The translations under genes and the position numbers were made by a program. A stretch of DNA of 59,896 bases, filler included. It is 5 parts of 5 records of this genome, joined end to end, with 100 filler letters (N's around TTAATTAATTAA, not from the genome) between each part and the next. Parts side by side here need not be neighbours in the genome. Positions count along the whole stretch, not along the records: positions 1 to 6,986 come from DRR723986_15151; 4 more parts are not named here. One strand, given 5' to 3'. Positions 1 to 17,024 of this stretch are shown piece by piece. Within the stretch, counting starts at the first letter, position 1; each line of letters opens with the position of its first letter. Under the pieces are notes generated by a model, which saw only the letters and a program-made list of their open reading frames with translations, made no database searches and was not told the origin of the DNA.

Positions 1-30
1 GGCTCGAACCAGCGACCTCGTCGATGTCAA
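1..30 (-). tRNA. tRNA-Val(GAC) 3'-half fragment (att core copy; homology ends at the anticodon loop)
   Basis: Reverse complement TTGACATCGACGAGGTCGCTGGTTCGAGCC = anticodon loop TTGACAT, 3' anticodon stem, variable loop and T-arm GGTTCGA. Sequence beyond 30 is not tRNA-like. Confidence 0.85.
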
Positions 31-94
31 AAATATGAACGGCTAGGCTTTCAGCCAAAAATCAGCTTTCAGCACCATCCCTCGCCTACAGTTA

Positions 95-107
95 AATCAA
101 AGGCTTA
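95..107 (+). promoter_or_regulatory. IHF consensus site in att arm
   Basis: AATCAAAGGCTTA matches WATCAANNNNTTR exactly, 65 nt from the att core. Confidence 0.6.
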
Positions 108-126
108 CCAAACCGTCTTGTCAGTA

Positions 127-147
127 TTGCAAACGGATTTGCAAAAC
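127..147 (+). repeat. Putative integrase arm-type sites (TTGCAAAC, TTTGCAAAAC)
   Basis: Tandem copies at 127-134 and 138-147; TTTGCAAAAC recurs at 6879-6888 on the other side of the core. Confidence 0.6.
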
Positions 148-199
148 CTGAGCACAGTTTATGGCAATCTCAGCCAAGCATCACGCATGGAGGTTTGCC

Positions 200-682
200 A
201 TGTCTGATAATCATGAGGTCACTATTCAACTGCGGGTCCCGGCGGCTGATGCAGATGCAATGGAAGAAGCAGTCAATGAGCTGCTTGCAAAAGCAAAGAC
301 CCAAGTGCGGCGTATAGCAGAAGAGGCAGAGCTTCGGACAATTGAACGTAAAAAGTTCAAGTACAGAACAAAGTCATTCTTCGCCTTAGCACCGGAAGCC
401 TTCAGGCTTTATCAAAAGTATCGCCAAGCTCATGCGTCCGCAAAAGCAACCTATTTGTTTATTGCCAACCAACTCCACTTGGATGCTCCCATAGCTGCTG
501 AAGCTCTCGTTCAAATCCATCGACGCAAACATATTAAGGAGCGCCAGAAAATGGCGCTGAAACTGGCTCGGCAAGGCCTGAGTAATACAGCAATTAGTAG
601 GCAACTGGGCGTATCGACAAGAACCGTTTCAAGGCTGCTTGTACCTCTTCTTCCATCAAAGTTGGGAGGCAAAAATGCATAG
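200..682 (+). CDS. DNA-binding protein with C-terminal helix-turn-helix
   Basis: GGAGG at 189-193 favours ATG 200 over 161; C-terminal GLSNTAISRQLGVSTRTVSRLL is a typical HTH. Confidence 0.75.
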   Translation: MSDNHEVTIQLRVPAADADAMEEAVNELLAKAKTQVRRIAEEAELRTIERKKFKYRTKSFFALAPEAFRLYQKYRQAHASAKATYLFIANQLHLDAPIAAEALVQIHRRKHIKERQKMALKLARQGLSNTAISRQLGVSTRTVSRLLVPLLPSKLGGKNA

Positions 683-971
683 CCTTCCAGCTACATTCGC
701 ACTTTGGCGACTTCAAGGTGAAACTGTTGCAAACCTCTTGTTTGACAGTCGCAGGAAACGCCAGTCCAAGGTGCTGAAAAGCGTTTTGAAAGTACTTGAT
801 CAAATTTGGACAAACCAATTTGGCGACCTGTACGTTGGTGAGCTGGTGCGACTGATCGATCTCCACCAGAAAGACGCCGCTTTGCTAGATGATACTGGCG
901 TTGGTGGTAATGCAGCAAACGATGATGATTTTGGCTTAGTGGCCTGCCCTTCGACCGAAGGGAATGCTTAA
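675..971 (+). CDS. Small hypothetical protein
   Basis: GGGAGG at 664-669; ATG 675 overlaps the upstream stop (ATGCATAG). Confidence 0.6.
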   Translation: MHSLPATFALWRLQGETVANLLFDSRRKRQSKVLKSVLKVLDQIWTNQFGDLYVGELVRLIDLHQKDAALLDDTGVGGNAANDDDFGLVACPSTEGNA

Positions 972-2752
972 TGATCTACACCCTAAAACCAGTTTGCACT
1001 TATGACGCACTGTCACAGCCCCGACCCGGTGGCGCTTTAGCGCCAGTGGTGCGGGAGGGGCTTGACCGGGCGGCGGCTCCTCACGCTGGCCCCGCAGGGG
1101 TCAGAAAACATTCTGACCCCTTGCCTAGCGGCGAGCGATTACTCTTTAAAAAACAACTCGCTTTCTCCAGCCTGTTTTTGAGTGTGGAGTGGTTAAACCT
1201 TTTTCAATTGCTCAATAAAAGCTGTTGTAAACGCGATGTAATGCGTAAATTCGGTTTCGAGAAACAAACCGGCCTCGACTTTATTTTCATGCCGGTTTAT
1301 TCGGTTGAATTTTCCAATTCGGCCTTGAATTTTGCGGATGTATATTTTGTATCTAGGTTCAAAAACCGTGATTATGCCGATAATGGAATTATTCAGAAGA
1401 ACGGCATTATTGCTCATGTTTTCATACACTGGCCTAAAAGGATAAAATTCCTCCACACGTTTTTCCTTCCAGACAGAGCTGTCGAGGTTTTGAAGCGCTT
1501 CAATATTTTTTTTCGCCAGTTCTTGAGAGACTTTGAGTTCTGCGATCATGCCGATTCTTATCGATTTCCGGAGAACATTTCTCTCTTTCTTGGCCTCACT
1601 AGCTCGCTCTTTCCATTCTGCTTGTTGTCGAGCATCCGCTTTTTTGTCCAAACGCAATTCTGCACGCAGTTGTCTAAAAAATCGCTGGTTTGTGTTGCGA
1701 TTGTTCCAAATAGCTATACCGATTGCAGCAAGGCCCGCGAGTGGCCCAGATATAGCCGCGGTAACATCAATCCAGTCTTTGTTACCGGAATAAGAACAAC
1801 AATATTGGGGCTGCCCCAACCAAAAGCCAATGTATCCAGCCGCAAAAATAACAAAAAGCGAAAGACAAAGAGTTTTCCAGTTGAGTTTCAAAATCATTCT
1901 TTTGACCTCTCTGATTTATTTTTCAACGAGCTCAAGACTAGGGTCCGGAGCTTTGGGGAGTTTGGAAAGCCATTTTTCGGTTTTAGCATACCGTTCTGGA
2001 AAATCCTGACGCTGAGCCTCAACAAGGGCATGCATATATTTCACAAGCGTTTTTCGCAGTGTTCCAGCGCTCCCATAAAGTGCGCGAAGGTCAATTGGGC
2101 CTGGGTTCGGTTTATTCAACGCGTCCCTGTATCGCCGCAAAGCTCTCTCATACTTAGATTGATTACGCGCGATTGCAGACACAGTATAGGCCGGCAGCGT
2201 CAACATTCGGTCGCCAAGGCTCTCATAAAACGGTCGAACAGGGTCAATGGCCTTTTTCTCGAAAAAATATTCAATAGCCTCTGCAGACAACTCACTGCTG
2301 CCGACAATGTATTTGAGATCAAAGGCGATATTATCAAGTTCAATTACCAAGTTGGTGCAGATCTGCTCTTGCTCAGCGCGTCTTCTGTTTTCAGAAACCA
2401 ACTCATTTTTTATGGAAATATAGAGTGCAACGAGCCCAGCAAGAGTTCCCGAAAGTGCAGAAAGGTATGGAATGAAATTGGGGTCACGATAATTGAAAAT
2501 AGAGAAGACAAGCAATGTCAGCACCAATATCAGTGCAGGCCAGCTCTTAGTTATTATTCTCTTCATTTTCATTTTTTGATCGCACCTTTTGCCATTCTGA
2601 ATACTAGAAATGTACCTGAAACGCTATCAATTAACGCAAACTACCGCTGTTCTATAGCGGTTCAGTGGATGAAAAATACCAATCCCCCCCTCCCTCTAAT
2701 AGGGGGGGTACTGTCTACAAACCCTCTTAAAAAGAGGGATGCTGGCATATGA
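971..2752 (+). CDS. 593-codon 'bridge' ORF antisense and in register to two cargo genes; product probably not a folded protein
   Basis: SD-like AAGGGA at 958-963, TAATG overlap at start, ATGA overlap with rep at end; stop-free over AT-rich DNA. Confidence 0.5.
   Translation: MIYTLKPVCTYDALSQPRPGGALAPVVREGLDRAAAPHAGPAGVRKHSDPLPSGERLLFKKQLAFSSLFLSVEWLNLFQLLNKSCCKRDVMRKFGFEKQTGLDFIFMPVYSVEFSNSALNFADVYFVSRFKNRDYADNGIIQKNGIIAHVFIHWPKRIKFLHTFFLPDRAVEVLKRFNIFFRQFLRDFEFCDHADSYRFPENISLFLGLTSSLFPFCLLSSIRFFVQTQFCTQLSKKSLVCVAIVPNSYTDCSKAREWPRYSRGNINPVFVTGIRTTILGLPQPKANVSSRKNNKKRKTKSFPVEFQNHSFDLSDLFFNELKTRVRSFGEFGKPFFGFSIPFWKILTLSLNKGMHIFHKRFSQCSSAPIKCAKVNWAWVRFIQRVPVSPQSSLILRLITRDCRHSIGRQRQHSVAKALIKRSNRVNGLFLEKIFNSLCRQLTAADNVFEIKGDIIKFNYQVGADLLLLSASSVFRNQLIFYGNIECNEPSKSSRKCRKVWNEIGVTIIENREDKQCQHQYQCRPALSYYSLHFHFLIAPFAILNTRNVPETLSINANYRCSIAVQWMKNTNPPLPLIGGVLSTNPLKKRDAGI
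1030..1130. other. GC-rich hairpin cluster, candidate single-strand origin (sso)
   Basis: TGGCGCT-TT-AGCGCCA (1030-1045) and AGGGGTCAGAA-AACA-TTCTGACCCCT (1096-1121); TAGCG motifs; lies upstream of the nick site. Confidence 0.5.
1193..1897 (-). CDS. Cargo membrane protein 1 (two N-terminal hydrophobic helices, charged coiled segment, helical domain)
   Basis: 234 aa with protein-like composition; paralogous motifs shared with 1916-2572. Confidence 0.8.
   Translation of the reverse strand: MILKLNWKTLCLSLFVIFAAGYIGFWLGQPQYCCSYSGNKDWIDVTAAISGPLAGLAAIGIAIWNNRNTNQRFFRQLRAELRLDKKADARQQAEWKERASEAKKERNVLRKSIRIGMIAELKVSQELAKKNIEALQNLDSSVWKEKRVEEFYPFRPVYENMSNNAVLLNNSIIGIITVFEPRYKIYIRKIQGRIGKFNRINRHENKVEAGLFLETEFTHYIAFTTAFIEQLKKV
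1916..2572 (-). CDS. Cargo membrane protein 2, paralog of 1193-1897
   Basis: SALSGTLAGLVALYISIKN vs AAISGPLAGLAAIGIAIWN; PVRPFYESL vs PFRPVYENM. Confidence 0.8.
   Translation of the reverse strand: MKMKRIITKSWPALILVLTLLVFSIFNYRDPNFIPYLSALSGTLAGLVALYISIKNELVSENRRRAEQEQICTNLVIELDNIAFDLKYIVGSSELSAEAIEYFFEKKAIDPVRPFYESLGDRMLTLPAYTVSAIARNQSKYERALRRYRDALNKPNPGPIDLRALYGSAGTLRKTLVKYMHALVEAQRQDFPERYAKTEKWLSKLPKAPDPSLELVEK
2601..2630 (-). promoter_or_regulatory. Candidate sigma70 promoter for the cargo operon
   Basis: TTGATA-18 nt-TAGTAT on the minus strand upstream of ATG 2572. Confidence 0.35.
2684..2708 (+). other. Rep_trans/MOB_T-type nick site hairpin (dso or oriT)
   Basis: C7-TCCCTCTAATA-G7. 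The loop contains CTCTAATAG as in the pT181-family dso; the C-run/G-run stem resembles ICEBs1 and Tn916 oriT. Lies 40 nt upstream of rep. Confidence 0.8.
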
Positions 2753-3945
2753 CAAGAAAGCGCTTGGATATTGATCTGCATTCCTGTGAAATCGATTATG
2801 GTTTTCTGATCTGCCATAACTTCGACTGGTGGCAAGAGGCGTTGAACCTCATGGTTCCAGTTACCTTGTGGAATAGCATGCTAAAGTCCAAGGAGGCTGC
2901 CAGAGAGTTAGACGATAGCAACAAGGCTTCCATTTCATTTGTTTTTGGTGGCGAGAAGTTCGAGCTTCAAGCCTACGGCCTGCGAAGCAAAGAGTTTGTC
3001 CTAATCAATGATGATATTCGGTTAGAGATCGGCCGCACCGATACGGCAATGGAATGGACGTTTGGTTGGCGTGCAACAGCCGCTGGCTTATGGGAGCACG
3101 GTGTAAAGGCACTCAGGCACCGTGTTTATACCATGTGCGACAAGGCGGGCCTGCGCCCAAGGGTTCGCGGACAATCGTGGATTAAACTTTCCAGAGCAGA
3201 TTATGCCTTCGATTTTTGGGCACCCGGTTTCACACCGGAAATGGAACCCGCTATTGCCGACAGATTTGTACTGCCTCCCGGTGTTAAAGGCAGTGGCAAT
3301 TTCTATCTAAAAAGCCCCAAAAAAGGCCAGTTTCATGCGCAACTGGAAACCTTCACTATTGGCAAGAAGGGTAGTCTGGAAATCCAGATATATGACAAGC
3401 TCACAGAAATCAGGGAAGCGTCAGGAAAAGAATGGATGCTGGATATATGGGCTGACTGTGGATACCAGCCCCCCGGCGAACCTTCTGATGTTTGGCGGTT
3501 GGAAGTCCGCATGTCTGGTGGCTGGCTCAAATCACGAACAGAAAAAGACCCAGAGAAGTTTTTGAGCCTCATGTGGCAGCTAATTGCGGAAGGCTTGCAA
3601 AGCCGCCGCTTAACGGTCCCACAAGGTGCTGACAGCAATCGTTCGCGTTGGCCTGTTCATCCACTATGGTCCCTTGCCATTGAAGCTGTTGGCGACCCTG
3701 AGGAGTTTGTGCCTGTAGGCCGTAAAATCACTGGAAAGCGTTCTGAGATCATCAGAAAATTCCAAACAGCTATAGCAGGCTATATGCGCACTGCTGCGGT
3801 TGTTGAGCATGGCATCACATTCACGGAAGAAGAACTCACAGAATTAGCGAGCAAGGCGGCGAGAGAGGCGCTTGCTGATAAGGAGCATAGTAAAAAGATA
3901 GCTCGTACGCAGGGACGGTATGAATTTGTGGATGAAGCTCAATGA
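2749..3945 (+). CDS. Rep_trans-family rolling-circle replication initiator / MOB_T-like relaxase
   Basis: Motifs LSRADYAFD, TFTIGKKG, IQIYDK (candidate catalytic Tyr), WRLEVR; adjacent nick hairpin. Confidence 0.8.
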   Translation: MTRKRLDIDLHSCEIDYGFLICHNFDWWQEALNLMVPVTLWNSMLKSKEAARELDDSNKASISFVFGGEKFELQAYGLRSKEFVLINDDIRLEIGRTDTAMEWTFGWRATAAGLWEHGVKALRHRVYTMCDKAGLRPRVRGQSWIKLSRADYAFDFWAPGFTPEMEPAIADRFVLPPGVKGSGNFYLKSPKKGQFHAQLETFTIGKKGSLEIQIYDKLTEIREASGKEWMLDIWADCGYQPPGEPSDVWRLEVRMSGGWLKSRTEKDPEKFLSLMWQLIAEGLQSRRLTVPQGADSNRSRWPVHPLWSLAIEAVGDPEEFVPVGRKITGKRSEIIRKFQTAIAGYMRTAAVVEHGITFTEEELTELASKAAREALADKEHSKKIARTQGRYEFVDEAQ

Positions 3946-4142
3946 CCGCCGCACTTCAATCATATACCCAAAATAGCCCAGCCACTACGGCAAGGCTCGC
4001 CATATCTGGTGGTGACGGCCAACACCAATTTAACAGACCCGGAACCCCCCATAGTTCCTCCCCCGGCATATTGCCGAAACTCTTCGGGCTCATGCCCGGT
4101 AAGACGCCATTAATATTGAAAGGAATTCATTATGGCTACTAA
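3942..4142 (+). CDS. 66-codon ORF bridging rep and the first XRE gene
   Basis: ATGA overlap with rep stop; its own stop overlaps the next start (ATGGCTACTAA); runs over hairpin-rich DNA. Confidence 0.4.
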   Translation: MTAALQSYTQNSPATTARLAISGGDGQHQFNRPGTPHSSSPGILPKLFGLMPGKTPLILKGIHYGY

Positions 4143-4995
4143 CAAACAGAATATCCCTTATGACGAACTGTCCGACTTTGGAGAGCGTCTTCGCTATGAA
4201 CGGGAAAAACAAGACCTCAGTCGACCAGCACTGTCGAAGCTAACTGGCAAAGCTATTTCTGCGCGTGTGATTGCGCACCTTGAGGACGGCAATACGGAAC
4301 CAAAACTCAAGCACAGTGAAATTTTGGCAGAAGTATTAGGCGTTGACGAAGTTTGGTTGAACCATGGCCTAACCAACGAAGACCAAAGCGAGCCAGATCA
4401 AGGCTTTGATAGCGTTCTTGGTGACCCAGTCAACGAATTGGACGAAACCAATTCGGGTGATTTCATGGGTGGTATCGACCAAGAAGCATCTGACAATATC
4501 GATGATGGCCCACAAACATTGGTACCCAGCAATGACAATCAAATGAGGCTCTACGTCGACACTGCATATGAATTGCTGGAGGTAATAGCTGCCATCAGGC
4601 ACGAAGGCTTTTTGCATCATATCAGAAAAATGCCCGGCTTGATTGAGCAAGCCATTGAAACCGGCAAGTTCCTCGAATTATCAGAAATTGAAGAGTTAGC
4701 GTCAGACCACAATGTCAACATTGATGGTGATATCCCCTTTGCGGAGCGCGAACCAACGGAAGATGAAATAAACGAAGTCATTCATCGTCTAATTGATACA
4801 GCGCTTCTTGGTATCGACCTCCATCAAGTGGACGTGGATAGTTTGCTCGCTTTTGCAAAAAGAAATCGAGTTCACCTTACGAGGCTTAACCGAAGGACCA
4901 TCTCAGCGTTGATAAATAAGTTGAGGCCAGTCTATTGGAACAGAGCGCTTGAGGATGGACTAACTGTTTCCACTTTCCTCTCGGAGACAGGCTAG
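4132..4995 (+). CDS. XRE-family HTH regulator with acidic linker and unknown C-terminal domain
   Basis: FGERLRYEREKQDLSRPALSKLT...LEDGNTEPKL...LAEVLGVDEVWL; SD AAGGA. Confidence 0.85.
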   Translation: MATNKQNIPYDELSDFGERLRYEREKQDLSRPALSKLTGKAISARVIAHLEDGNTEPKLKHSEILAEVLGVDEVWLNHGLTNEDQSEPDQGFDSVLGDPVNELDETNSGDFMGGIDQEASDNIDDGPQTLVPSNDNQMRLYVDTAYELLEVIAAIRHEGFLHHIRKMPGLIEQAIETGKFLELSEIEELASDHNVNIDGDIPFAEREPTEDEINEVIHRLIDTALLGIDLHQVDVDSLLAFAKRNRVHLTRLNRRTISALINKLRPVYWNRALEDGLTVSTFLSETG

Positions 4996-5678
4996 TGAAA
5001 ACGGGCTGGATTGACCAAAAATTAGTTCAGCCCAAATTTTGGTTGCTTTTTGTATATTTTATGTCATTATTGGATCATATGTTACTAATTTGTACTATGG
5101 ATACAATTTTGAAATTAAAATCAGAAAAATATGATGCTGCTAAACACTTTGAAAAGCCCGAAACCCTTGGGGATGAGCTTATTCGATGCAGGAAAAGGCT
5201 TGGGCTGTCCCGAACAGAACTTTCAAAGCGTTCAGGCATAGCCGCAAATTCCATATCCAAATATGAACAAGCAGGCCGAGTTGGCGGCCAATACCCACCA
5301 ATACCAAAACTTGCGAAGCTTTGCGTTGAGCTAGGCATTGATGCGCGTGAATTGCTCGCGATGACGCTAGAGGATAATCAGGATGCAATTACTCTGCTTG
5401 AAACTGGAGGCAGCCGGGACGACTATGAAAATCTGATGGGTGAGTTGACCGAGTTCGCAGAAAACCCTCAAAAGCCAATGGTGCTGTTTGACCGGAACAA
5501 CAATATGTTTTCTGTCACTCACATTCCCATGCAACAGCACCTTGCAAACCCATGGGATAAAACAGCAAAATTAAAAGAACCCGCGGAGGCTAGTTTGGCG
5601 ACGAGCTCCACGGGTTCAAATCCAAAATCAACACCAATCGCAAAAAAGGAGCCTGAAGATGGACAGTCCTCAGATTAA
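4995..5678 (+). CDS. Second XRE-family HTH regulator (GTG 4995 or ATG 5097 start)
   Basis: LGDELIRCRKRLGLSRTELSKRSGIAANSISKYE...LAKLCVELGID; GGAGA SD and TAGTG overlap support the GTG start. Confidence 0.85.
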   Translation: MKTGWIDQKLVQPKFWLLFVYFMSLLDHMLLICTMDTILKLKSEKYDAAKHFEKPETLGDELIRCRKRLGLSRTELSKRSGIAANSISKYEQAGRVGGQYPPIPKLAKLCVELGIDARELLAMTLEDNQDAITLLETGGSRDDYENLMGELTEFAENPQKPMVLFDRNNNMFSVTHIPMQQHLANPWDKTAKLKEPAEASLATSSTGSNPKSTPIAKKEPEDGQSSD

Positions 5679-6006
5679 TCCTCCTGATGAAATTGCACAA
5701 GCCCTTGCGTCCCTGCCGCTCTTTTTAAGCGTCAAGCGGGCTGCTGAGTTTTTAGGTTTCTGCGCTTCCACTATCCGAGAGATGGTGAAACGCGGAGAAC
5801 TAACAGCTCTTCGCCCAGAGGGTCGTAACATGCGTATTCCGCGCTATGCCATTACTCAATATCTGGAGGACAACACATGGCACGCCCAAGAAAAGGCCCC
5901 CGGCTCGTCCGTATCAACGGAAAAGACAACTGGTATGTCCGAGATGGACGCGGCACACAATTTACGACAGGAACTGCGGATAGGGAGAGCGCTGAATGCA
6001 CGCTAG
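5659..6006 (+). CDS. xis: Excisionase-like HTH protein
   Basis: FLSVKRAAEFLGFCASTIREMVKRGELTA...RIPR; SD AAGGAG; directly before and overlapping the integrase. Confidence 0.8.
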   Translation: MDSPQINPPDEIAQALASLPLFLSVKRAAEFLGFCASTIREMVKRGELTALRPEGRNMRIPRYAITQYLEDNTWHAQEKAPGSSVSTEKTTGMSEMDAAHNLRQELRIGRALNAR

Positions 6007-6926
6007 CCTCCTATATCGCAAAGAAGGCCATTCCAGCCCAGCCAACAATTGCCCAATTGCTGGATATGAGGATGGAAGACCTGCGAGCACGCAATGTGCC
6101 GTCCGCAAGCAACACTGTGTATCGTCACAATGCCTTGAAGCGCCATTTCGGACCACTAAGGCCGGAACAGCTTTCTATCGCCCTGATCAGCAAATTTCGG
6201 CAAGAGCACAACCATGTGCAAGCGATGCTGCGGGAATATCTACTGGAATTGAAATCAACGCTGAAAATGGCGAAGGACAACAATATAATTGCAACGGTCC
6301 TGCCCATATCAGTGCCAGCCAAAAACCCACCACGAGACAGGTTTCTAAGCCACGAGGAGGCCGCAAAGCTTTGGAACGCGGCTCACGGCGCTCATATCAA
6401 GCTTTTCATTCATCTGGCATTGGTTACCGGCGCACGCAAAGGCGCGATACTACAATTGACGTGGGACCGTGTGGACCTGGACAACGGGCGTTTGGATTTC
6501 AACGACCCGAACTGGCCAATAACCAACAAGCGCCGAACACTATCACCAATCGAACCGGCAGTGATCGAAATGCTGACCGAAGCAAAGACATTTGCAGAAA
6601 CCAACCACGTAATAGAGTTCAACGGGAAACCATTGAAAGACATAAAGAAGGGCTTCGCCTTGGCAGCAAAGAAAGCAGGCCTGAGTGGTGTAACACCGCA
6701 CACGTTGAAGCATACGGCAATATCGTGGCTGGCACAGGCAGGAAGCCCGATAGAACATATTGCTGCAATGACGGCCACAAACGCCAACACGGTGCGCCGC
6801 ATCTATCAGAAATTTGCACCGGAATACCTTCAAGACGAGGCGAAAATACTGTCAAATGCCATGAGTTTTACACACACATTTGCAAAACAGGCCCAATCAA
6901 CACAATCAAGCGAGGCCTCAATATGA
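5877..6926 (+). CDS. int: Tyrosine recombinase / integrase
   Basis: TGARKGAILQLTWDRVDL, TPHTLKHTAISW, C-terminal VRRIY; SD GGAGGA; adjacent to att. Confidence 0.93.
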   Translation: MARPRKGPRLVRINGKDNWYVRDGRGTQFTTGTADRESAECTLASYIAKKAIPAQPTIAQLLDMRMEDLRARNVPSASNTVYRHNALKRHFGPLRPEQLSIALISKFRQEHNHVQAMLREYLLELKSTLKMAKDNNIIATVLPISVPAKNPPRDRFLSHEEAAKLWNAAHGAHIKLFIHLALVTGARKGAILQLTWDRVDLDNGRLDFNDPNWPITNKRRTLSPIEPAVIEMLTEAKTFAETNHVIEFNGKPLKDIKKGFALAAKKAGLSGVTPHTLKHTAISWLAQAGSPIEHIAAMTATNANTVRRIYQKFAPEYLQDEAKILSNAMSFTHTFAKQAQSTQSSEASI

Positions 6927-6958
6927 TTGCAAGTTACTGTAATATAAGGGTTTTAAAA

Positions 6959-6986
6959 TGGTGGTCGGTACTGGGCTCGAACCAGC
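6959..6986 (-). tRNA. tRNA 3' end (T-arm, acceptor strand, CCA), truncated by contig end; att core copy
   Basis: Reverse complement GCTGGTTCGAGCCCAGTACCGACCACCA; overlaps and continues the fragment at 1-30, giving a 45-nt core. Confidence 0.85.
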
Positions 6987-7086
6987 NNNNNNNNNNNNNN
7001 NNNNNNNNNNNNNNNNNNNNNNNNNNNNNNTTAATTAATTAANNNNNNNNNNNNNNNNNNNNNNNNNNNNNNNNNNNNNNNNNNNN
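6987..7086. other. Artificial contig spacer
   Basis: 100 nt of N with TTAATTAATTAA (stops in all six frames) at 7031-7042. Confidence 0.98.
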
Positions 7087-7872
7087 GAAAACTCGGAAGA
7101 CATTTATGCGGGTATTGAATACGAAGCTGAAACTGACAAAGCCAAGAAACTGATCAAATTCTTGCGTGAAGAAATGGGTGTGAGCAAAATTCGTTTCCCC
7201 GAAACTTCAGGCATCGGCATCAAGCCAATTTCCAAAGAGGGCACTGAGCGCCTCTTCCGCAAGGCCGTTCAGTACGCCATCGACAACAAAAAGCCCTCAG
7301 TAACAATTGTGCACAAGGGCAACATCATGAAGTACACCGAAGGCGCTTTTGCGGCCTGGTCGTACGCTTTGGCCAAGAACGAATTCGGCGCCGAACTGCT
7401 GGACGGCGGCCCTTGGATGAAAATCAAGGCTGCGCATGGTGACATCGTGATCAAAGACGTGATTGCCGATGCTTTCTTGCAGCAAATTTTGCTGCGCCCT
7501 GCTGAGTACAGCGTGATTGCGACCATGAACTTGAATGGCGACTACATTTCCGATGCATTGGCCGCTCAGGTCGGTGGTATTGGTATTGCCCCCGGTGCGA
7601 ATCTGTCCGACTCCATCGCGATGTTCGAGGCTACCCACGGTACCGCACCGAAGTACGCCGGCAAAGACTACGTGAATCCAGGTTCACAAATTTTGTCTGC
7701 CGAAATGATGCTGCGTCACATGGGTTGGGTTGAGGCTGCTGATCTGATTATCACTTCCATGGAGAAATCCATTTCGTCCAAGAAGGTGACCTACGACTTC
7801 GCACGCTTGATGGATGGCGCTACACAGGTGAGCTGTTCCGGGTTCGGTCAGGTGATGATCGACCACATGTAA
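7087..7872 (+). CDS. icd: NADP-dependent isocitrate dehydrogenase, 5'-truncated
   Basis: [52 protein letters not shown]. Confidence 0.97.
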
Positions 7873-8885: not shown

Positions 8886-11206
8886 TTGCGCAAGAGTTGG
8901 AAGTTAGTTTGCACATGGCATTTGTTGACGCACGTCAGCAAAAGCATGAATTCATCACGGTAGAGCACCTTCTATTGGCCTTGCTGGACAATCCTTCAGC
9001 GGCTGAGGTGTTACGTTCATGCTCATGCGATGTCGAAGAAATTCGAAAGAACCTGCAAAATTTCATCAAGGACAACACCCCTGTGGTGTCAGGTCAGGAT
9101 GAGGTGGACACTCAGCCCACACTTGGATTTCAGCGCGTTATTCAGCGTGCCATCATGCACGTTCAGAGCACCTCCAACGGCAAGAAAGAAGTGACTGGTG
9201 CAAATGTGTTGGTGGCGATCTTCGGTGAGAAAGATTCACATGCAGTGTATTACCTGCACCAGCAGGGTATTACCCGTCTGGACGTGGTGAACTACATTTC
9301 ACACGGCATTACAAAAACTCCCCAGGCGCCTGCGCCGAAGCCTGAGAATTCCCAGAACGAGAATCAGGAGCAGGAGGCCGAGGCCACCCAAAATGTGGGT
9401 GACAAGCAATCGCCTCTGGACCAGTACACCCAGAATTTGAATGCATTGGCCAAGGAAGGGAAAATTGATCCGCTGATTGGCCGTGAGCAGGAAGTGGAGC
9501 GGGTTATTCAGGTGCTGTGCCGCCGCCGCAAAAACAACCCGCTCTTGGTGGGTGAGGCTGGTGTGGGTAAAACCGCGATTGCCGAGGGCTTGGCATGGAG
9601 AATTGTGCAGGGTGACGTGCCGGAAATTTTGGCAACAGCGCAGGTGCATTCACTGGACATGGGCGCGCTGCTGGCGGGCACCAAATACCGTGGCGATTTC
9701 GAACAGCGTTTGAAAGCGGTATTGAAACAGTTGAAAGCAAACCCGGATTCCGTGTTGTTCATTGATGAAATCCATACCCTGATTGGCGCAGGCTCCGCTT
9801 CTGGCGGCACGCTGGATGCGTCCAACTTGCTCAAGCCAGCCTTGTCCTCCGGGCAGCTGAAGTGCATCGGCGCAACCACCTTTACTGAATATCGTGGCAT
9901 TTTCGAGAAAGACCATGCACTGTCACGTCGATTCCAGAAAATTGATGTGTCTGAGCCCACTGTGGAACAAACCATTGAAATTTTGCGAGGCCTCAAGAGC
10001 CGGTTCGAAGACCACCATGGCGTGAAGTACTCCAGCGCGGCCATTTCGGCAGCCGCTGAGTTGTCGGCCAAGTTTATCAACGATCGTCATTTGCCCGACA
10101 AGGCCATTGACGTGATTGATGAAGCCGGTGCGGCGCAGCGTATTTTGCCAAAGAGCAAGCAGCGAAAAACAATTACCAAGGGCGACATTGAAGACATCGT
10201 GTCCAAGATCGCGCGCATTCCACCACAGTCGGTGAATACCGACGATCGGAACAAGCTTGCGACTCTCGATCGAGATTTGAAAGCCACCGTGTTTGGGCAG
10301 GACCCGGCCATTGAGGCGCTGGCCAATGCCATCAAAATGTCGCGTGCCGGTTTGGGCAAGGCTGACAAGCCGATTGGATCGTTCCTGTTCAGCGGCCCCA
10401 CGGGTGTCGGTAAAACAGAGGTGGCCAAACAGTTGGCGTTCATTCTCGGTATTGAAATGCTGCGGTTTGACATGTCGGAGTACATGGAGCGCCATGCTGT
10501 TTCCCGGCTGATTGGTGCCCCCCCCGGCTACGTTGGTTTTGACCAGGGCGGTTTGCTGACTGAAGCCATTACCAAGAAACCGCATTGCGTGTTGTTGCTG
10601 GATGAAATTGAAAAAGCGCACCCTGATGTGTTCAACATTCTGTTGCAGGTCATGGACAATGGCACTTTGACCGACAACAACGGTCGTAAGGCGGACTTCC
10701 GCAACGTGATCATTATCATGACCACCAATGCAGGTGCAGAGGCTTTGACCAAGCGCGGTATTGGCTTTATGGAGTCGAAGGTTCAGGGCGACGAGATGGA
10801 AGACATCAAACGCATGTTCAGCCCCGAGTTCCGCAACCGCCTTGATTCTGTCATTTCATTCCGCGCGCTGGATGAAGAAATCATTCTTCGCGTGGTCGAC
10901 AAGTTCCTGATGGAACTTGAAGAGCAGTTACACCAGAAGAAAGTCGATGCAGTATTCACAGACGATCTGCGTAAACATCTGGCGAAAAAAGGTTTTGATC
11001 CACTCATGGGTGCCCGACCCATGCAACGTTTGATCCAGGACACCATTCGCAAAGCTTTGGCTGATGAATTGCTGTTTGGCAAGCTGGTCAGTGGCGGCAA
11101 GGTGACCGTGGATCACGACGTAGAAAACGACCAGGTGTCGCTGACTTTTGATGAAGGTTCATCAGGTCAGGAGTCGGAGAGCGGTACTGAGGTGGCGGTT
11201 GATTAA
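8882..11206 (+). CDS. clpA: Clp protease ATP-binding subunit ClpA
   Basis: [11 protein letters not shown] start; Walker A motifs GEAGVGKT and [11 protein letters not shown] loop; ATGA-coupled to clpS. Confidence 0.97.
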
Positions 11207-15482: not shown

Positions 15483-17024
15483 TTAGCGCGTTTTAGACAT
15501 CGACGCTTCAATAAAGTTGTCAAAGTCTTCCTTAAAACGCTTCAGCGATTCCGTGTGAATGTACATCATGTGGCCCGCCGGATAATAGGTCATCGTGATG
15601 TTGTCACGCCGCGAAGGCTCAAGCCCCATGTGATGCAACGTGAACTCCGTCGCAAAATACGGTGTCGCCAGGTCGTAGTACCCGTTTGAAATCCAAACGT
15701 TCAGATCCGGATTCTTGGCCATTGCCTCGCGTAGCGTTTCGGCCGTGTTGGTGTAACCAGAAGACGCATTGCCCCAATTCCAGGGACGCACGCGGCCGGT
15801 CAGAATCTCGTAGGGAATGTCATTTTCGTACTCCAGCTCACCGCGCACATAGTCGTTGAGCAGTGCCGTGTACGGTCCCATAATTGCAGTTAAACTTGGG
15901 TCGTGCTCCATCCAGGCACCGTTCGCATTCGCGTCGATACCTTTAAAGCGACTGTCCAAACGGCCGACCGTCTTGTCTTCTGAACGCAATAACTCTTTGC
16001 AGAACTGATGAATGTTAATCTTCAGGTCACTTAACAGAATCCACTCCTTGTCCAGTCCCGTGTATTCCACCAAACGGTCGGCAATGCGCTGACGCTCGGC
16101 TTCTTCCAGATCCGTGCCGCGCGCCAGGGCCGGCAGATATTCTTCCATTGCAAATTCTTCGACTTCGTCGAGTGTTGTGCGCAGGTCCGCCTGGTATTTG
16201 ACCGGCAGTTGATTGTGGTAAAACGACGTTGCCGTGTAGGTTGGCAAAAACAGGACGTAGGGCCAGATATTGCCCGGATCAAAACGTGCGGTATTAAACT
16301 GCAGAATCGACGAAACCAGCATCAGGCCGTTAAGGTACATGCCATGCCTGTCTTGCAAATAACCGGACAGCCCGGCCGCACGTGTAGTTCCATAACTTTC
16401 ACCCGCCAGGAACTTCGGCGAAGTCCAGCGTTCGTTTTGTGTTGTCCACAGGCGGATAAAATCACCAACTGAGCGGATGTCTTCGTCAACGCCGTGAAAC
16501 TGCTCGCGTTTTTCTTCCGGTGCCGGGCGGCTGTAACCTGTCCCCACCGGATCGATAAACACCAGGTCGGTTTTGTCGAGCCAGGTGTCTTCATTGTTAA
16601 CAAGTTTATAGGGCGGAGCGCTCGCATGTAGCATGTCCTGCATATCCACACGCCGCGGACCAAGTGCACCAAGATGCAGCCAAACCGAGGAAGAACCAGG
16701 GCCACCGTTAAACGCAAACGTCACCGGTCGGTCAGATTTTCCGGTTACACCATCCAGTGTATACGCAATAAAAAATATCGCGGCCTTGTGCACACCATTC
16801 TCCGTCACGGCATGCAGATAACCGCTCGTACTGGTGTAATTGAGCGCACGCCCTTTAACCTGAACGGTATGTTTGGCAACTGCGATTTCGCCGGCGCGAT
16901 CTCCCAGTCCGATCTTGTGCATTGTAGCAGCCGTGCCTTCGTCGGCATTCACGCTGGCAAAACAAAACGTCAGCAGAGCCAGACACATCACTGTCAGTCG
17001 GCGCATCAACATGGTATCACTCAT
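15483..17024 (-). CDS. Secreted S10-family serine carboxypeptidase
   Basis: FNGGPGSSS, IDPVGTGYS, GESYG, GYYDLATP, AGHMMY; signal peptide. Confidence 0.93.
   Translation of the reverse strand: MSDTMLMRRLTVMCLALLTFCFASVNADEGTAATMHKIGLGDRAGEIAVAKHTVQVKGRALNYTSTSGYLHAVTENGVHKAAIFFIAYTLDGVTGKSDRPVTFAFNGGPGSSSVWLHLGALGPRRVDMQDMLHASAPPYKLVNNEDTWLDKTDLVFIDPVGTGYSRPAPEEKREQFHGVDEDIRSVGDFIRLWTTQNERWTSPKFLAGESYGTTRAAGLSGYLQDRHGMYLNGLMLVSSILQFNTARFDPGNIWPYVLFLPTYTATSFYHNQLPVKYQADLRTTLDEVEEFAMEEYLPALARGTDLEEAERQRIADRLVEYTGLDKEWILLSDLKINIHQFCKELLRSEDKTVGRLDSRFKGIDANANGAWMEHDPSLTAIMGPYTALLNDYVRGELEYENDIPYEILTGRVRPWNWGNASSGYTNTAETLREAMAKNPDLNVWISNGYYDLATPYFATEFTLHHMGLEPSRRDNITMTYYPAGHMMYIHTESLKRFKEDFDNFIEASMSKTR

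Follow-up and report, generated by a model that had tools for sequence, protein, structure and literature searches.

In Tn916, according to the available text of the report, the genes for DNA processing and for conjugation have no promoter while the element is integrated and, once it has excised, are transcribed from Porf7 across the joint (PMC11658703). Here we describe a 7-kb element that integrates into a tRNA gene and that makes up positions 1..6986 (contig DRR723986_15151) of a stretch of 59,896 nucleotides (nt), the whole of which we call the window. Joining the two ends of this element creates an open reading frame (ORF) that runs from the stop of the integrase gene (int) across the attachment site of the circle (attP) to the first left-end gene, from which a chain of ORFs leads on to the gene for a Rep_trans-like replication initiator (rep). 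The logic that we propose resembles that of Tn916, in that expression of genes at the far end is coupled to excision through a promoter at the other end that reads across the joined ends. The means differ: Tn916, as far as the same text goes, uses terminators and an antiterminator RNA, canT, and its orf5 has been shown not to function as one, whereas the element here is 7 kb long, targets a tRNA gene, encodes a Rep_trans-like initiator, is known from sequence alone, and has as its link a stop-free frame with coupled start and stop.

Two other systems change what is read at an attachment (att) site. In mycobacteriophage BPs, the accessible part of the report places attP inside the repressor ORF, from which integration removes an ssrA-like tag (PMC4557955). 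The two cases are alike in that attP lies within an ORF and that integrated and free forms encode different C-termini; they differ in that the BPs ORF is the repressor, whereas the product of the ORF described here is not conserved and the ORF joins int to the next gene. No sign of a repressor of the BPs type was found in the attP ORF: the frame of 1-207 has no Pfam family match, and the product is unconserved. In ICEKp1, usage of the int promoter switches with the state of the element, and joining of the ends in the excised form changes the promoter from which a gene near att is served (PMC13023037, available text). There the regulated gene is int, the mechanism is transcriptional, and that text describes no spanning ORF.

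In phage lambda, sib is an RNase III site beyond attP that leads to destruction of int mRNA and acts only with attP intact. It is likewise a cis element across attP that acts on int expression, whereas continuity in the present element would switch downstream genes on. In plasmid R1, translation of the upstream leader ORF tap, the product of which is irrelevant, is needed for repA, the start of which is folded. Such plasmid leaders have a few dozen codons and are not antisense, whereas the frame before rep has 342-619 codons here. A full-text search of the literature gave, among the matches listed, no description of stop-free relay frames like these. Coupling of replication or transfer genes to excision is already known from Tn916; in the present element, it appears to take the form of uninterrupted translation.

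A frame that opens when the ends are joined

The window is made up of draft contigs, between which stand N/TTAATTAATTAA/N linkers with stops in all six frames. The TTAATTAATTAA 12-mer occurs four times in the window (7031, 12803, 24415 and 44906) and in none of the shuffles; positions 1..6986 are therefore a single draft contig, and ORFs that enter a linker, such as 5996..7042, are artefacts. The ends of this contig overlap by 13 nt (6974-6986 are identical to 1-13), and once joined they match the antisense 3' half of tRNA-Val(GAC), with 50/52 aligned positions in one relative (L060) and 50/55 in another (L001); the join thus makes biological sense. Since the tRNA resemblance stops past base 30, both contig ends break within the att core, of which the contig retains 30 nt on the left and ~30 nt on the right; a k=31 assembly graph around a 47-nt repeat would give exactly these ends. 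As for direct repeats of the tRNA 3' half, the window itself offers its two contig ends, with the 13-nt overlap and a deduced join that matches tRNA-Val at 50/52, and both flanking copies are seen in relatives. A tyrosine integrase gene adjoins the att site, as in other integrative elements that target tRNA genes.

The initial annotation had described, from the letters of the contig, an ORF of 85 amino acids (aa) across the joined ends, and each part of this description was confirmed. ATG 6923 overlaps the stop of int (5877..6926, ending with TGA 6924-6926, which gives ATGA) and stands 8 nt downstream of GAGG 6911-6914; 17 codons (6923-6973) then lead into the overlap, where 6974-6986 equal 1-13 and the phase is kept; frame 1 of 1-207 is stop-free until TGA 205-207, which overlaps the gene starting at ATG 200; and the joined ORF, 85 aa long, crosses the antisense tRNA core, the joined ends rebuilding the 3' half of tRNA-Val. 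That annotation had missed that the frame is open far 5' of ATG 6923; once the element is modelled as a circle, the frame has 394 codons, with ATG 5996 and TGA 207 as its ends. The other two frames across attP contain 2-7 stops each in the window, L001 and L003.

Relatives of the element were closed in silico into circle models by a script wherever both att copies of an integrated copy were present, and the ORFs of the circles were listed. L001, a hit of the int search (67% identity) on an 886-kb contig of a Kordiimonadaceae metagenome-assembled genome, is a syntenic integrated element with an 82% identical Rep, and it adjoins tRNA-Val between perfect 51-nt repeats. L003, found as a Rep-profile match in a 103-kb metagenome contig, has the same backbone with a Rep of 51% identity; it lies at tRNA-Phe between 48-nt repeats with 1 mismatch, and its int is too distant for the window int to match. 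An order-level genome search with int (7/401 genomes at E <= 1e-40) yielded L059 (int 57%, tRNA-Thr, an imperfect repeat pair, no Rep_trans match) and the truncated loci L060 (int 49%, tRNA-Val) and L061. L064, from IMG/VR, has an int of 50% identity, and its left end is cut off. The genomes that carry relatives are those of Kordiimonadaceae.

In each of the four complete elements whose int lies at the right end (the window, L001, L003 and L059), an open frame crosses attP into the first left-end gene. The L001 circle has GGAGG and ATGA at the int stop, and its frame ends with a TGA 8 nt into the helix-turn-helix (HTH) gene, after 84 codons, or 393 from an upstream ATG; the L003 circle has GGAGG, 6 nt, ATGA at the int stop, and ATGTCTGA at the HTH start, with 75 codons; in the L059 circle, an ATG lies 20 nt before the int stop and the frame, of 190 codons, runs in phase into the first left-end gene. 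The exact geometry, i.e. GAGG or GGAGG 6-8 nt before ATGA and ATGNNTGA at the next start, is present in three elements (the window, L001 and L003) and spans different targets, as L003 uses tRNA-Phe and not tRNA-Val. Homologous attP regions with stops in all + frames, which the initial annotation had named as fatal to its proposal, were not what L001, L003 and L059 contain. In the integrated state, the frame ends 3-33 nt past the core in L003, L059 and L060 and 525 nt past the core in L001; on the left side, it is closed at or within the left core copy.

The probability of such a frame arising by chance was estimated by dinucleotide-shuffling both arms with the core fixed and scoring for a frame open to the ATG of the next gene. 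The frame was open in 497/20000 shuffles of the window (2.5%), 2459/20000 of L001 (12%), 547/20000 of L003 (2.7%) and 2214/20000 of L059 (11%). By reading, the tRNA sequence of the att core is open in all three frames, and it therefore adds nothing to this test. Openness taken alone is of moderate significance. Chance is nevertheless judged unlikely, because openness combines with repeated junctions, a Shine-Dalgarno (SD) sequence with ATGA and then ATGNNTGA, in elements with different tRNAs; there is good support for selection on continuity across attP. What selection acts on is unlikely to be the peptide, as it is conserved only within the tRNA-derived core; outside this core, the peptides of the spanning ORFs are dissimilar (frames read by eye, without alignment).

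A repeat ending in ATTTGCAAAAC flanks the core on both sides (123-147 and 6864-6888), and L001 has a comparable CAGTTTGC pair. These ATTTGCAAAAC/CAGTTTGC repeats, located within the spanning ORF, are candidate arm-type integrase sites.

Stop-free frames within int, opposite the cargo genes and before rep

The frame that crosses attP is the +2 (= -1) frame of int, and it is depleted of stops well before the int stop: past codon 48, the window, L001 and L060 have 0 stops each in this frame and L064 has 1, versus 10.7-14.3 expected, and as few were seen in 0/10000 codon-order shuffles of int. It is open for ~300 codons in these four relatives (5996-6926 in the window, 10141-11071 in L001), and in all four its ATG overlaps the stop of the extended excisionase-gene (xis) ORF by 11 nt, an overlap that may be a by-product of conserved Int residues. 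Its openness is kept and its sequence is not: aa identity in the +2 frame is at or below that in the non-coding +1 frame in 10/10 int pairs (0.33 vs 0.37 for the window and L001), and the frame of 5996-6973 has no Pfam or PHROG family match.

A second set of stop-free + frames lies antisense to the cargo genes that precede rep: 593 codons in the window (971-2752), 583 + 619 in L001 (2638-6239) and 342 in L003 (8980-10008). Over the cargo genes, these antisense-aligned + frames have 0 stops, and the other two + frames 17-36 each. Seven cargo genes contain 0 TTA/CTA/TCA codons versus 16.1, 36.3 and 12.0 expected from the codon usage of the other genes of the elements (P = 1e-8, 1e-18 and 4e-7). 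The minus strand is the coding one, as follows from nucleotide identity, which is pos2 > pos1 > pos3 when read on the minus strand in 8/8 gene pairs, and from protein scores, the best pair reaching E = 4e-45 on the minus strand vs 9e-9 in + frames. Since both lines favour the minus strand, we reject the + strand ORF of 593 codons as a real gene; the cargo-antisense + frames have no Pfam family match. Nor does either set qualify as an overprinted, dual-coding gene, since the aa constraint on the second frame that would mark one was seen neither in the int +2 frame nor in the cargo + frames, which are far less conserved than the minus frames.

In the window, each + ORF overlaps its successor all the way round from XRE to HTH_3; past the int stop, the successive overlaps as far as HTH_3 are 4, 8, 8, 1, 4, 4 and 11 nt, the stop-start arrangement of coupled pairs. 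In the window, L001 and L003 alike, the chain has no break between the int stop and the start of rep; gaps are confined, in L001 and L003, to the stretch before the XRE-type gene and, in L003, also to that around one minus-strand gene. Rep scores 17.5 bits (window) and 21.5 bits (L001) against PF02486, below the cut-off of 29.6, while 10/99 of its database homologues carry a precomputed PF02486 match; we therefore treat it as a distant relative and call it Rep_trans-like. The Rep relatives P0001, P0003 and P0005-P0014 have 49-92% identity, and contigs of 6-8 kb carry most of them. The rep start region has a predicted local hairpin in all three elements, as would be expected if rep needed upstream translation. 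RNA folds at the start of the HTH gene are no better than those of shuffles (z = -1.4, -0.6 and -0.5), and there is therefore no case for a masked start there. The proposal of the initial annotation that excision joins the int side to the genes leading to rep is thus borne out as far as the open frame and the unbroken ORF chain of the three circles go; its further step, that initiation at rep is gated by circularisation, is one that we infer.

A proposed translational relay across attP and competing explanations

On balance, we lean towards a relay in which translated frames tie the expression of rep to circularisation, with a single operon that laps the circle as the most economical account. 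A promoter would lie 5' of the XRE gene in the AT-rich stretch ~5040-5096, which is situated between a terminator-like hairpin and the probable XRE start, ATG 5097; a promoter-like AT-rich gap is found at the corresponding place in L001. Induction would first yield XRE, Xis and Int from the XRE-xis-int transcript. In the circular form only, transcription and translation would pass attP into the HTH gene, the 98-aa ORF, the cargo-antisense frame and rep, and the transcript would run on to the HTH_3 gene and end at the hairpin 5003-5033. The attP-spanning ORF would be the link that integration cuts, a translated relay frame and not a protein gene; selection would hold it stop-free with both ends coupled (SD-ATGA where int stops, ATGNNTGA where the following gene starts) and leave its amino acids free to drift. 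Ribosomes would hand translation to the next gene by termination-reinitiation, and might also protect the RNA from Rho-dependent termination, by either or both routes, so that rep would be produced only after excision. We infer the promoter, the translation of the frames, the role of coupling or Rho and the silence of rep in the integrated state from this arrangement.

A broader version is more tentative, and we regard it as possible rather than probable: at least a third of the + strand would be kept as translated relay frames that are stop-free while their sequence is free to drift, comprising the int -1 frame, attP, and the 0.7-3.6 kb antisense of the cargo genes, such that the transcript of one promoter is covered by ribosomes for the whole lap. 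Integration would break the relay at attP, and the rep transcript would never be made or would be terminated. The topological switch would then consist of translation continuity and Rho polarity, not of repressors or antiterminators.

Several observations weigh against a relay gated by circularisation. The join at attP in the window is that of a contig end to a contig start and lies in no read-through sequence. Common descent links the window and L001 (int 67%, Rep 82%), which therefore do not count as independent cases. In L059, the ATG lacks a clear SD, and the frame fuses with the first gene rather than stopping where that gene starts; the geometry is not seen in L050, a distant relative by its Rep that has int at the left end. 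Openness by itself is only moderately unlikely in L001 (0.12) and L059 (0.11), and conservation of residues 2-3 of the HTH protein could account for the TGA of ATGNNTGA. In L059 (13 stops) and L003 (30), the +2 frame of int is not depleted of stops, and where it is open, this is unexplained if the int frame and ATG 6923 suffice for the relay. The result that no + strand sigma-70-like site lies in 1-200 or 2573-2748, which would favour the relay, comes from a crude consensus match that gave fewer sites than shuffles (6 vs 8.1). If a left-end promoter exists, the HTH gene, which has a good SD of its own, could be translated independently.

In a rival account, the open frames only serve ordinary coupling in a compact, mainly circular replicon, and rep and the left-end genes have one or more promoters of their own and no gating. 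Stop/start overlaps all round the element, the GGAGG of the HTH gene, the contigs of ~6-8 kb on which many Rep relatives lie and a promoter scan too crude to exclude a promoter would all suit it; we nonetheless think it rather unlikely, because it leaves unexplained the stop-free frames where there is no gene to couple (cargo antisense, int +2), and because L001, L003 and L059 sit integrated in large contigs. It is improbable that a functional protein of the excised form, such as a regulator or recombination cofactor, is encoded by the attP ORF, be it on its own or in the shape of the 394-codon frame that begins at ATG 5996. The frame is open, conserved as a frame, provided with an SD and different between the integrated and circular states, and the available text on the BPs repressor gene, which contains attP, offers a parallel (PMC4557955); however, there is no sequence conservation beyond the tRNA core, identity in the int +2 frame is not above that of a non-coding frame, neither 5996-6973 (Pfam, PHROG) nor 1-207 (Pfam) matches a family, and the lengths vary from 75 to 394 codons.

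We give still less credence to a chance open frame combined with an assembly artefact, in which the 13 nt common to the contig ends are all there is to the join and the ORF is meaningless. The deduced join, contig ends that would break inside a repeat as assembly graphs do, and a tRNA core that is open in all three frames and adds nothing to the test are all compatible with such an artefact, but few shuffles keep the frame open, and the geometry of SD-ATGA and ATGNNTGA is found again in L001 and L003, where both att copies lie within long contigs. Programmed -1 frameshifting, served by the stop-free int +2 (= -1) frame and giving Int isoforms whose C-terminus depends on the integration state, seems to us highly improbable: the open frame is indeed the -1 frame of int, over ~300 codons in four relatives, but a single frameshift site would not require 300 open codons, and the frame instead begins in an overlap with the stop of xis.

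Gene content, related loci and implications

The element carries the XRE gene, xis, int, the HTH gene, the cargo genes, rep and the HTH_3 gene (Table 1). The putative xis product matches HTH_17 (PF12728, 3.5e-11) and the PHROG 66 excisionase family (1.7e-07). The cargo genes encode a family of paralogous 210-260-aa proteins with hydrophobic N-termini, in 2 copies in the window, 4 in L001 and 1 in L003; Pfam gave only weak sub-cut-off matches, PADLOC none for 8 of the proteins and PHROGs none for the two of the window, and a word-indexed search with m1 returned only 2 homologues, the L001 paralogue not being among them. A block of ~38 nt upstream of rep is near-identical in three otherwise diverged elements (the window, L001 at ~6170-6207 and L003 at ~9923-9960), and its hairpin makes it a candidate double-strand origin or nick site. 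An Rfam search gave a single match, below threshold.

Table 1. Coordinates of features of the element and of the adjoining linker in the window
Feature	Position	Strand	Remarks
Left part of att core	1..30	-	1-13 repeat 6974-6986; 14-30 extend the tRNA-Val 3' half to the anticodon loop
Distal part of attP-spanning ORF, 68 codons	1..207	+	TGA 205-207 lies 8 nt into the HTH gene (ATGTCTGA); ATGNNTGA overlap also in L001 and L003
First left-end gene, HTH_23/GerE-like DNA-binding protein	200..682	+	GGAGG 7 nt 5' of ATG
98-aa ORF, no family	675..971	+	8-nt and 1-nt overlaps with its neighbours; relatives in L003 and L064
Proposed relay frame, 593 codons, stop-free, codon-aligned antisense to two cargo genes	971..2752	+	Terminates with ATGA at the start of rep
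Cargo gene m1, 234 aa, membrane/coiled-coil-like, no family	1193..1897	-	Real coding strand
Cargo gene m2, 218 aa, m1 paralogue	1916..2572	-	
Conserved block with C7/G7 hairpin, 11-nt loop	2682..2720	+	2684-2690 pairs with 2702-2708; ~40 nt upstream of rep
Rep_trans-like replication initiator gene	2749..3945	+	Below Pfam cut-off
66-aa ORF (3942..4142) and HTH_3 regulator gene (4132..4995)	3942..4995	+	Final members of the ORF chain
Terminator-like hairpin	5003..5033	+	Just past the HTH_3 stop
XRE-type HTH_31 gene, first of the proposed operon	5097..5678	+	Start at 5097 probable
Excisionase-like HTH_17 ORF, 115 aa	5659..6006	+	Tail overlaps int start
Tyrosine integrase gene	5877..6926	+	PF00589 1.1e-14; PHROG 1 integrase 1.9e-42
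Stop-free +2 frame of int, continuing across attP	5996..6986	+	ATG 5996 overlaps the extended xis ORF stop (6004-6006) by 11 nt
Int-proximal part of attP-spanning ORF	6923..6986	+	SD-ATGA arrangement also in L001 and L003
Antisense tRNA-Val 3' end (acceptor and T arm), right part of att core	6959..6986	-	Compared with tRNA-Val(GAC) in L001 and L060
Artificial contig linker	6987..7086	.	44 N + TTAATTAATTAA + 44 N; not biology

Searches for further relatives added little. No relative turned up in the initial Rep scans of metagenome and viral contigs, nor in a second viral scan; tblastn with Rep gave 3 distant matches in a plasmid collection and 0 in a phage collection. A phylum-level genome sample contained no new int relative (1/401 genomes, the known one), and a family-level search for int relatives gave nothing new (3/45). 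Among the candidates that were set aside, L063 (the Rep contig of G565) is a different element, L072-L074 are not of this backbone, and the geometry is not that of L050 (tRNA-Glu, int on the left, AbiEii) or L006. No match to the HTH, xis or int proteins of the backbone was found in the other Rep-bearing loci; L002 and L045 matched HTH_3 regulators only.

For a Pfam survey of these other loci, 48/82 ORFs of at least 180 aa were submitted. Corticovirus-type P2 coat genes lie beside Rep relatives in L007, L008, L009, L044 and L045, genes for Zot and secretin of the inovirus type in L048 and L049, and int with AbiEii in L050. The window element, which has no coat, Zot or secretin genes, could be a satellite or stripped-down derivative of such prophages. 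L006 and L073 are contigs of ~10.3 kb with a repeat at the start and near the end (47 nt in L006, 55 nt in L073) and with all small ORFs on the Rep strand, and they are probably circular genomes of another Rep-bearing element.

Two att sites of relatives carry traces of their own. The displaced left tRNA-Thr 3'-half copy of L059 (5628-5672) differs from that of the tRNA gene itself (15712-15756) by paired T-stem changes, and the element therefore brings a slightly different, still base-paired tRNA end. To the left of L003 there are two more, degraded copies of the tRNA-Phe core (6893-6929 and 7762-7779), which suggests remnants of earlier insertions at the same site.

The signature described here, long stop-free frames without aa constraint, even antisense to real genes, is one that can be read from sequence. 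If the relay is real, it carries a warning for annotation, as gene callers are likely to call the + frames of 583-619 codons and to miss the cargo genes on the minus strand. It would also provide a natural system in which to study translation-dependent transcript survival, and it would give a rolling-circle element a simple means not to fire its origin while in the chromosome.

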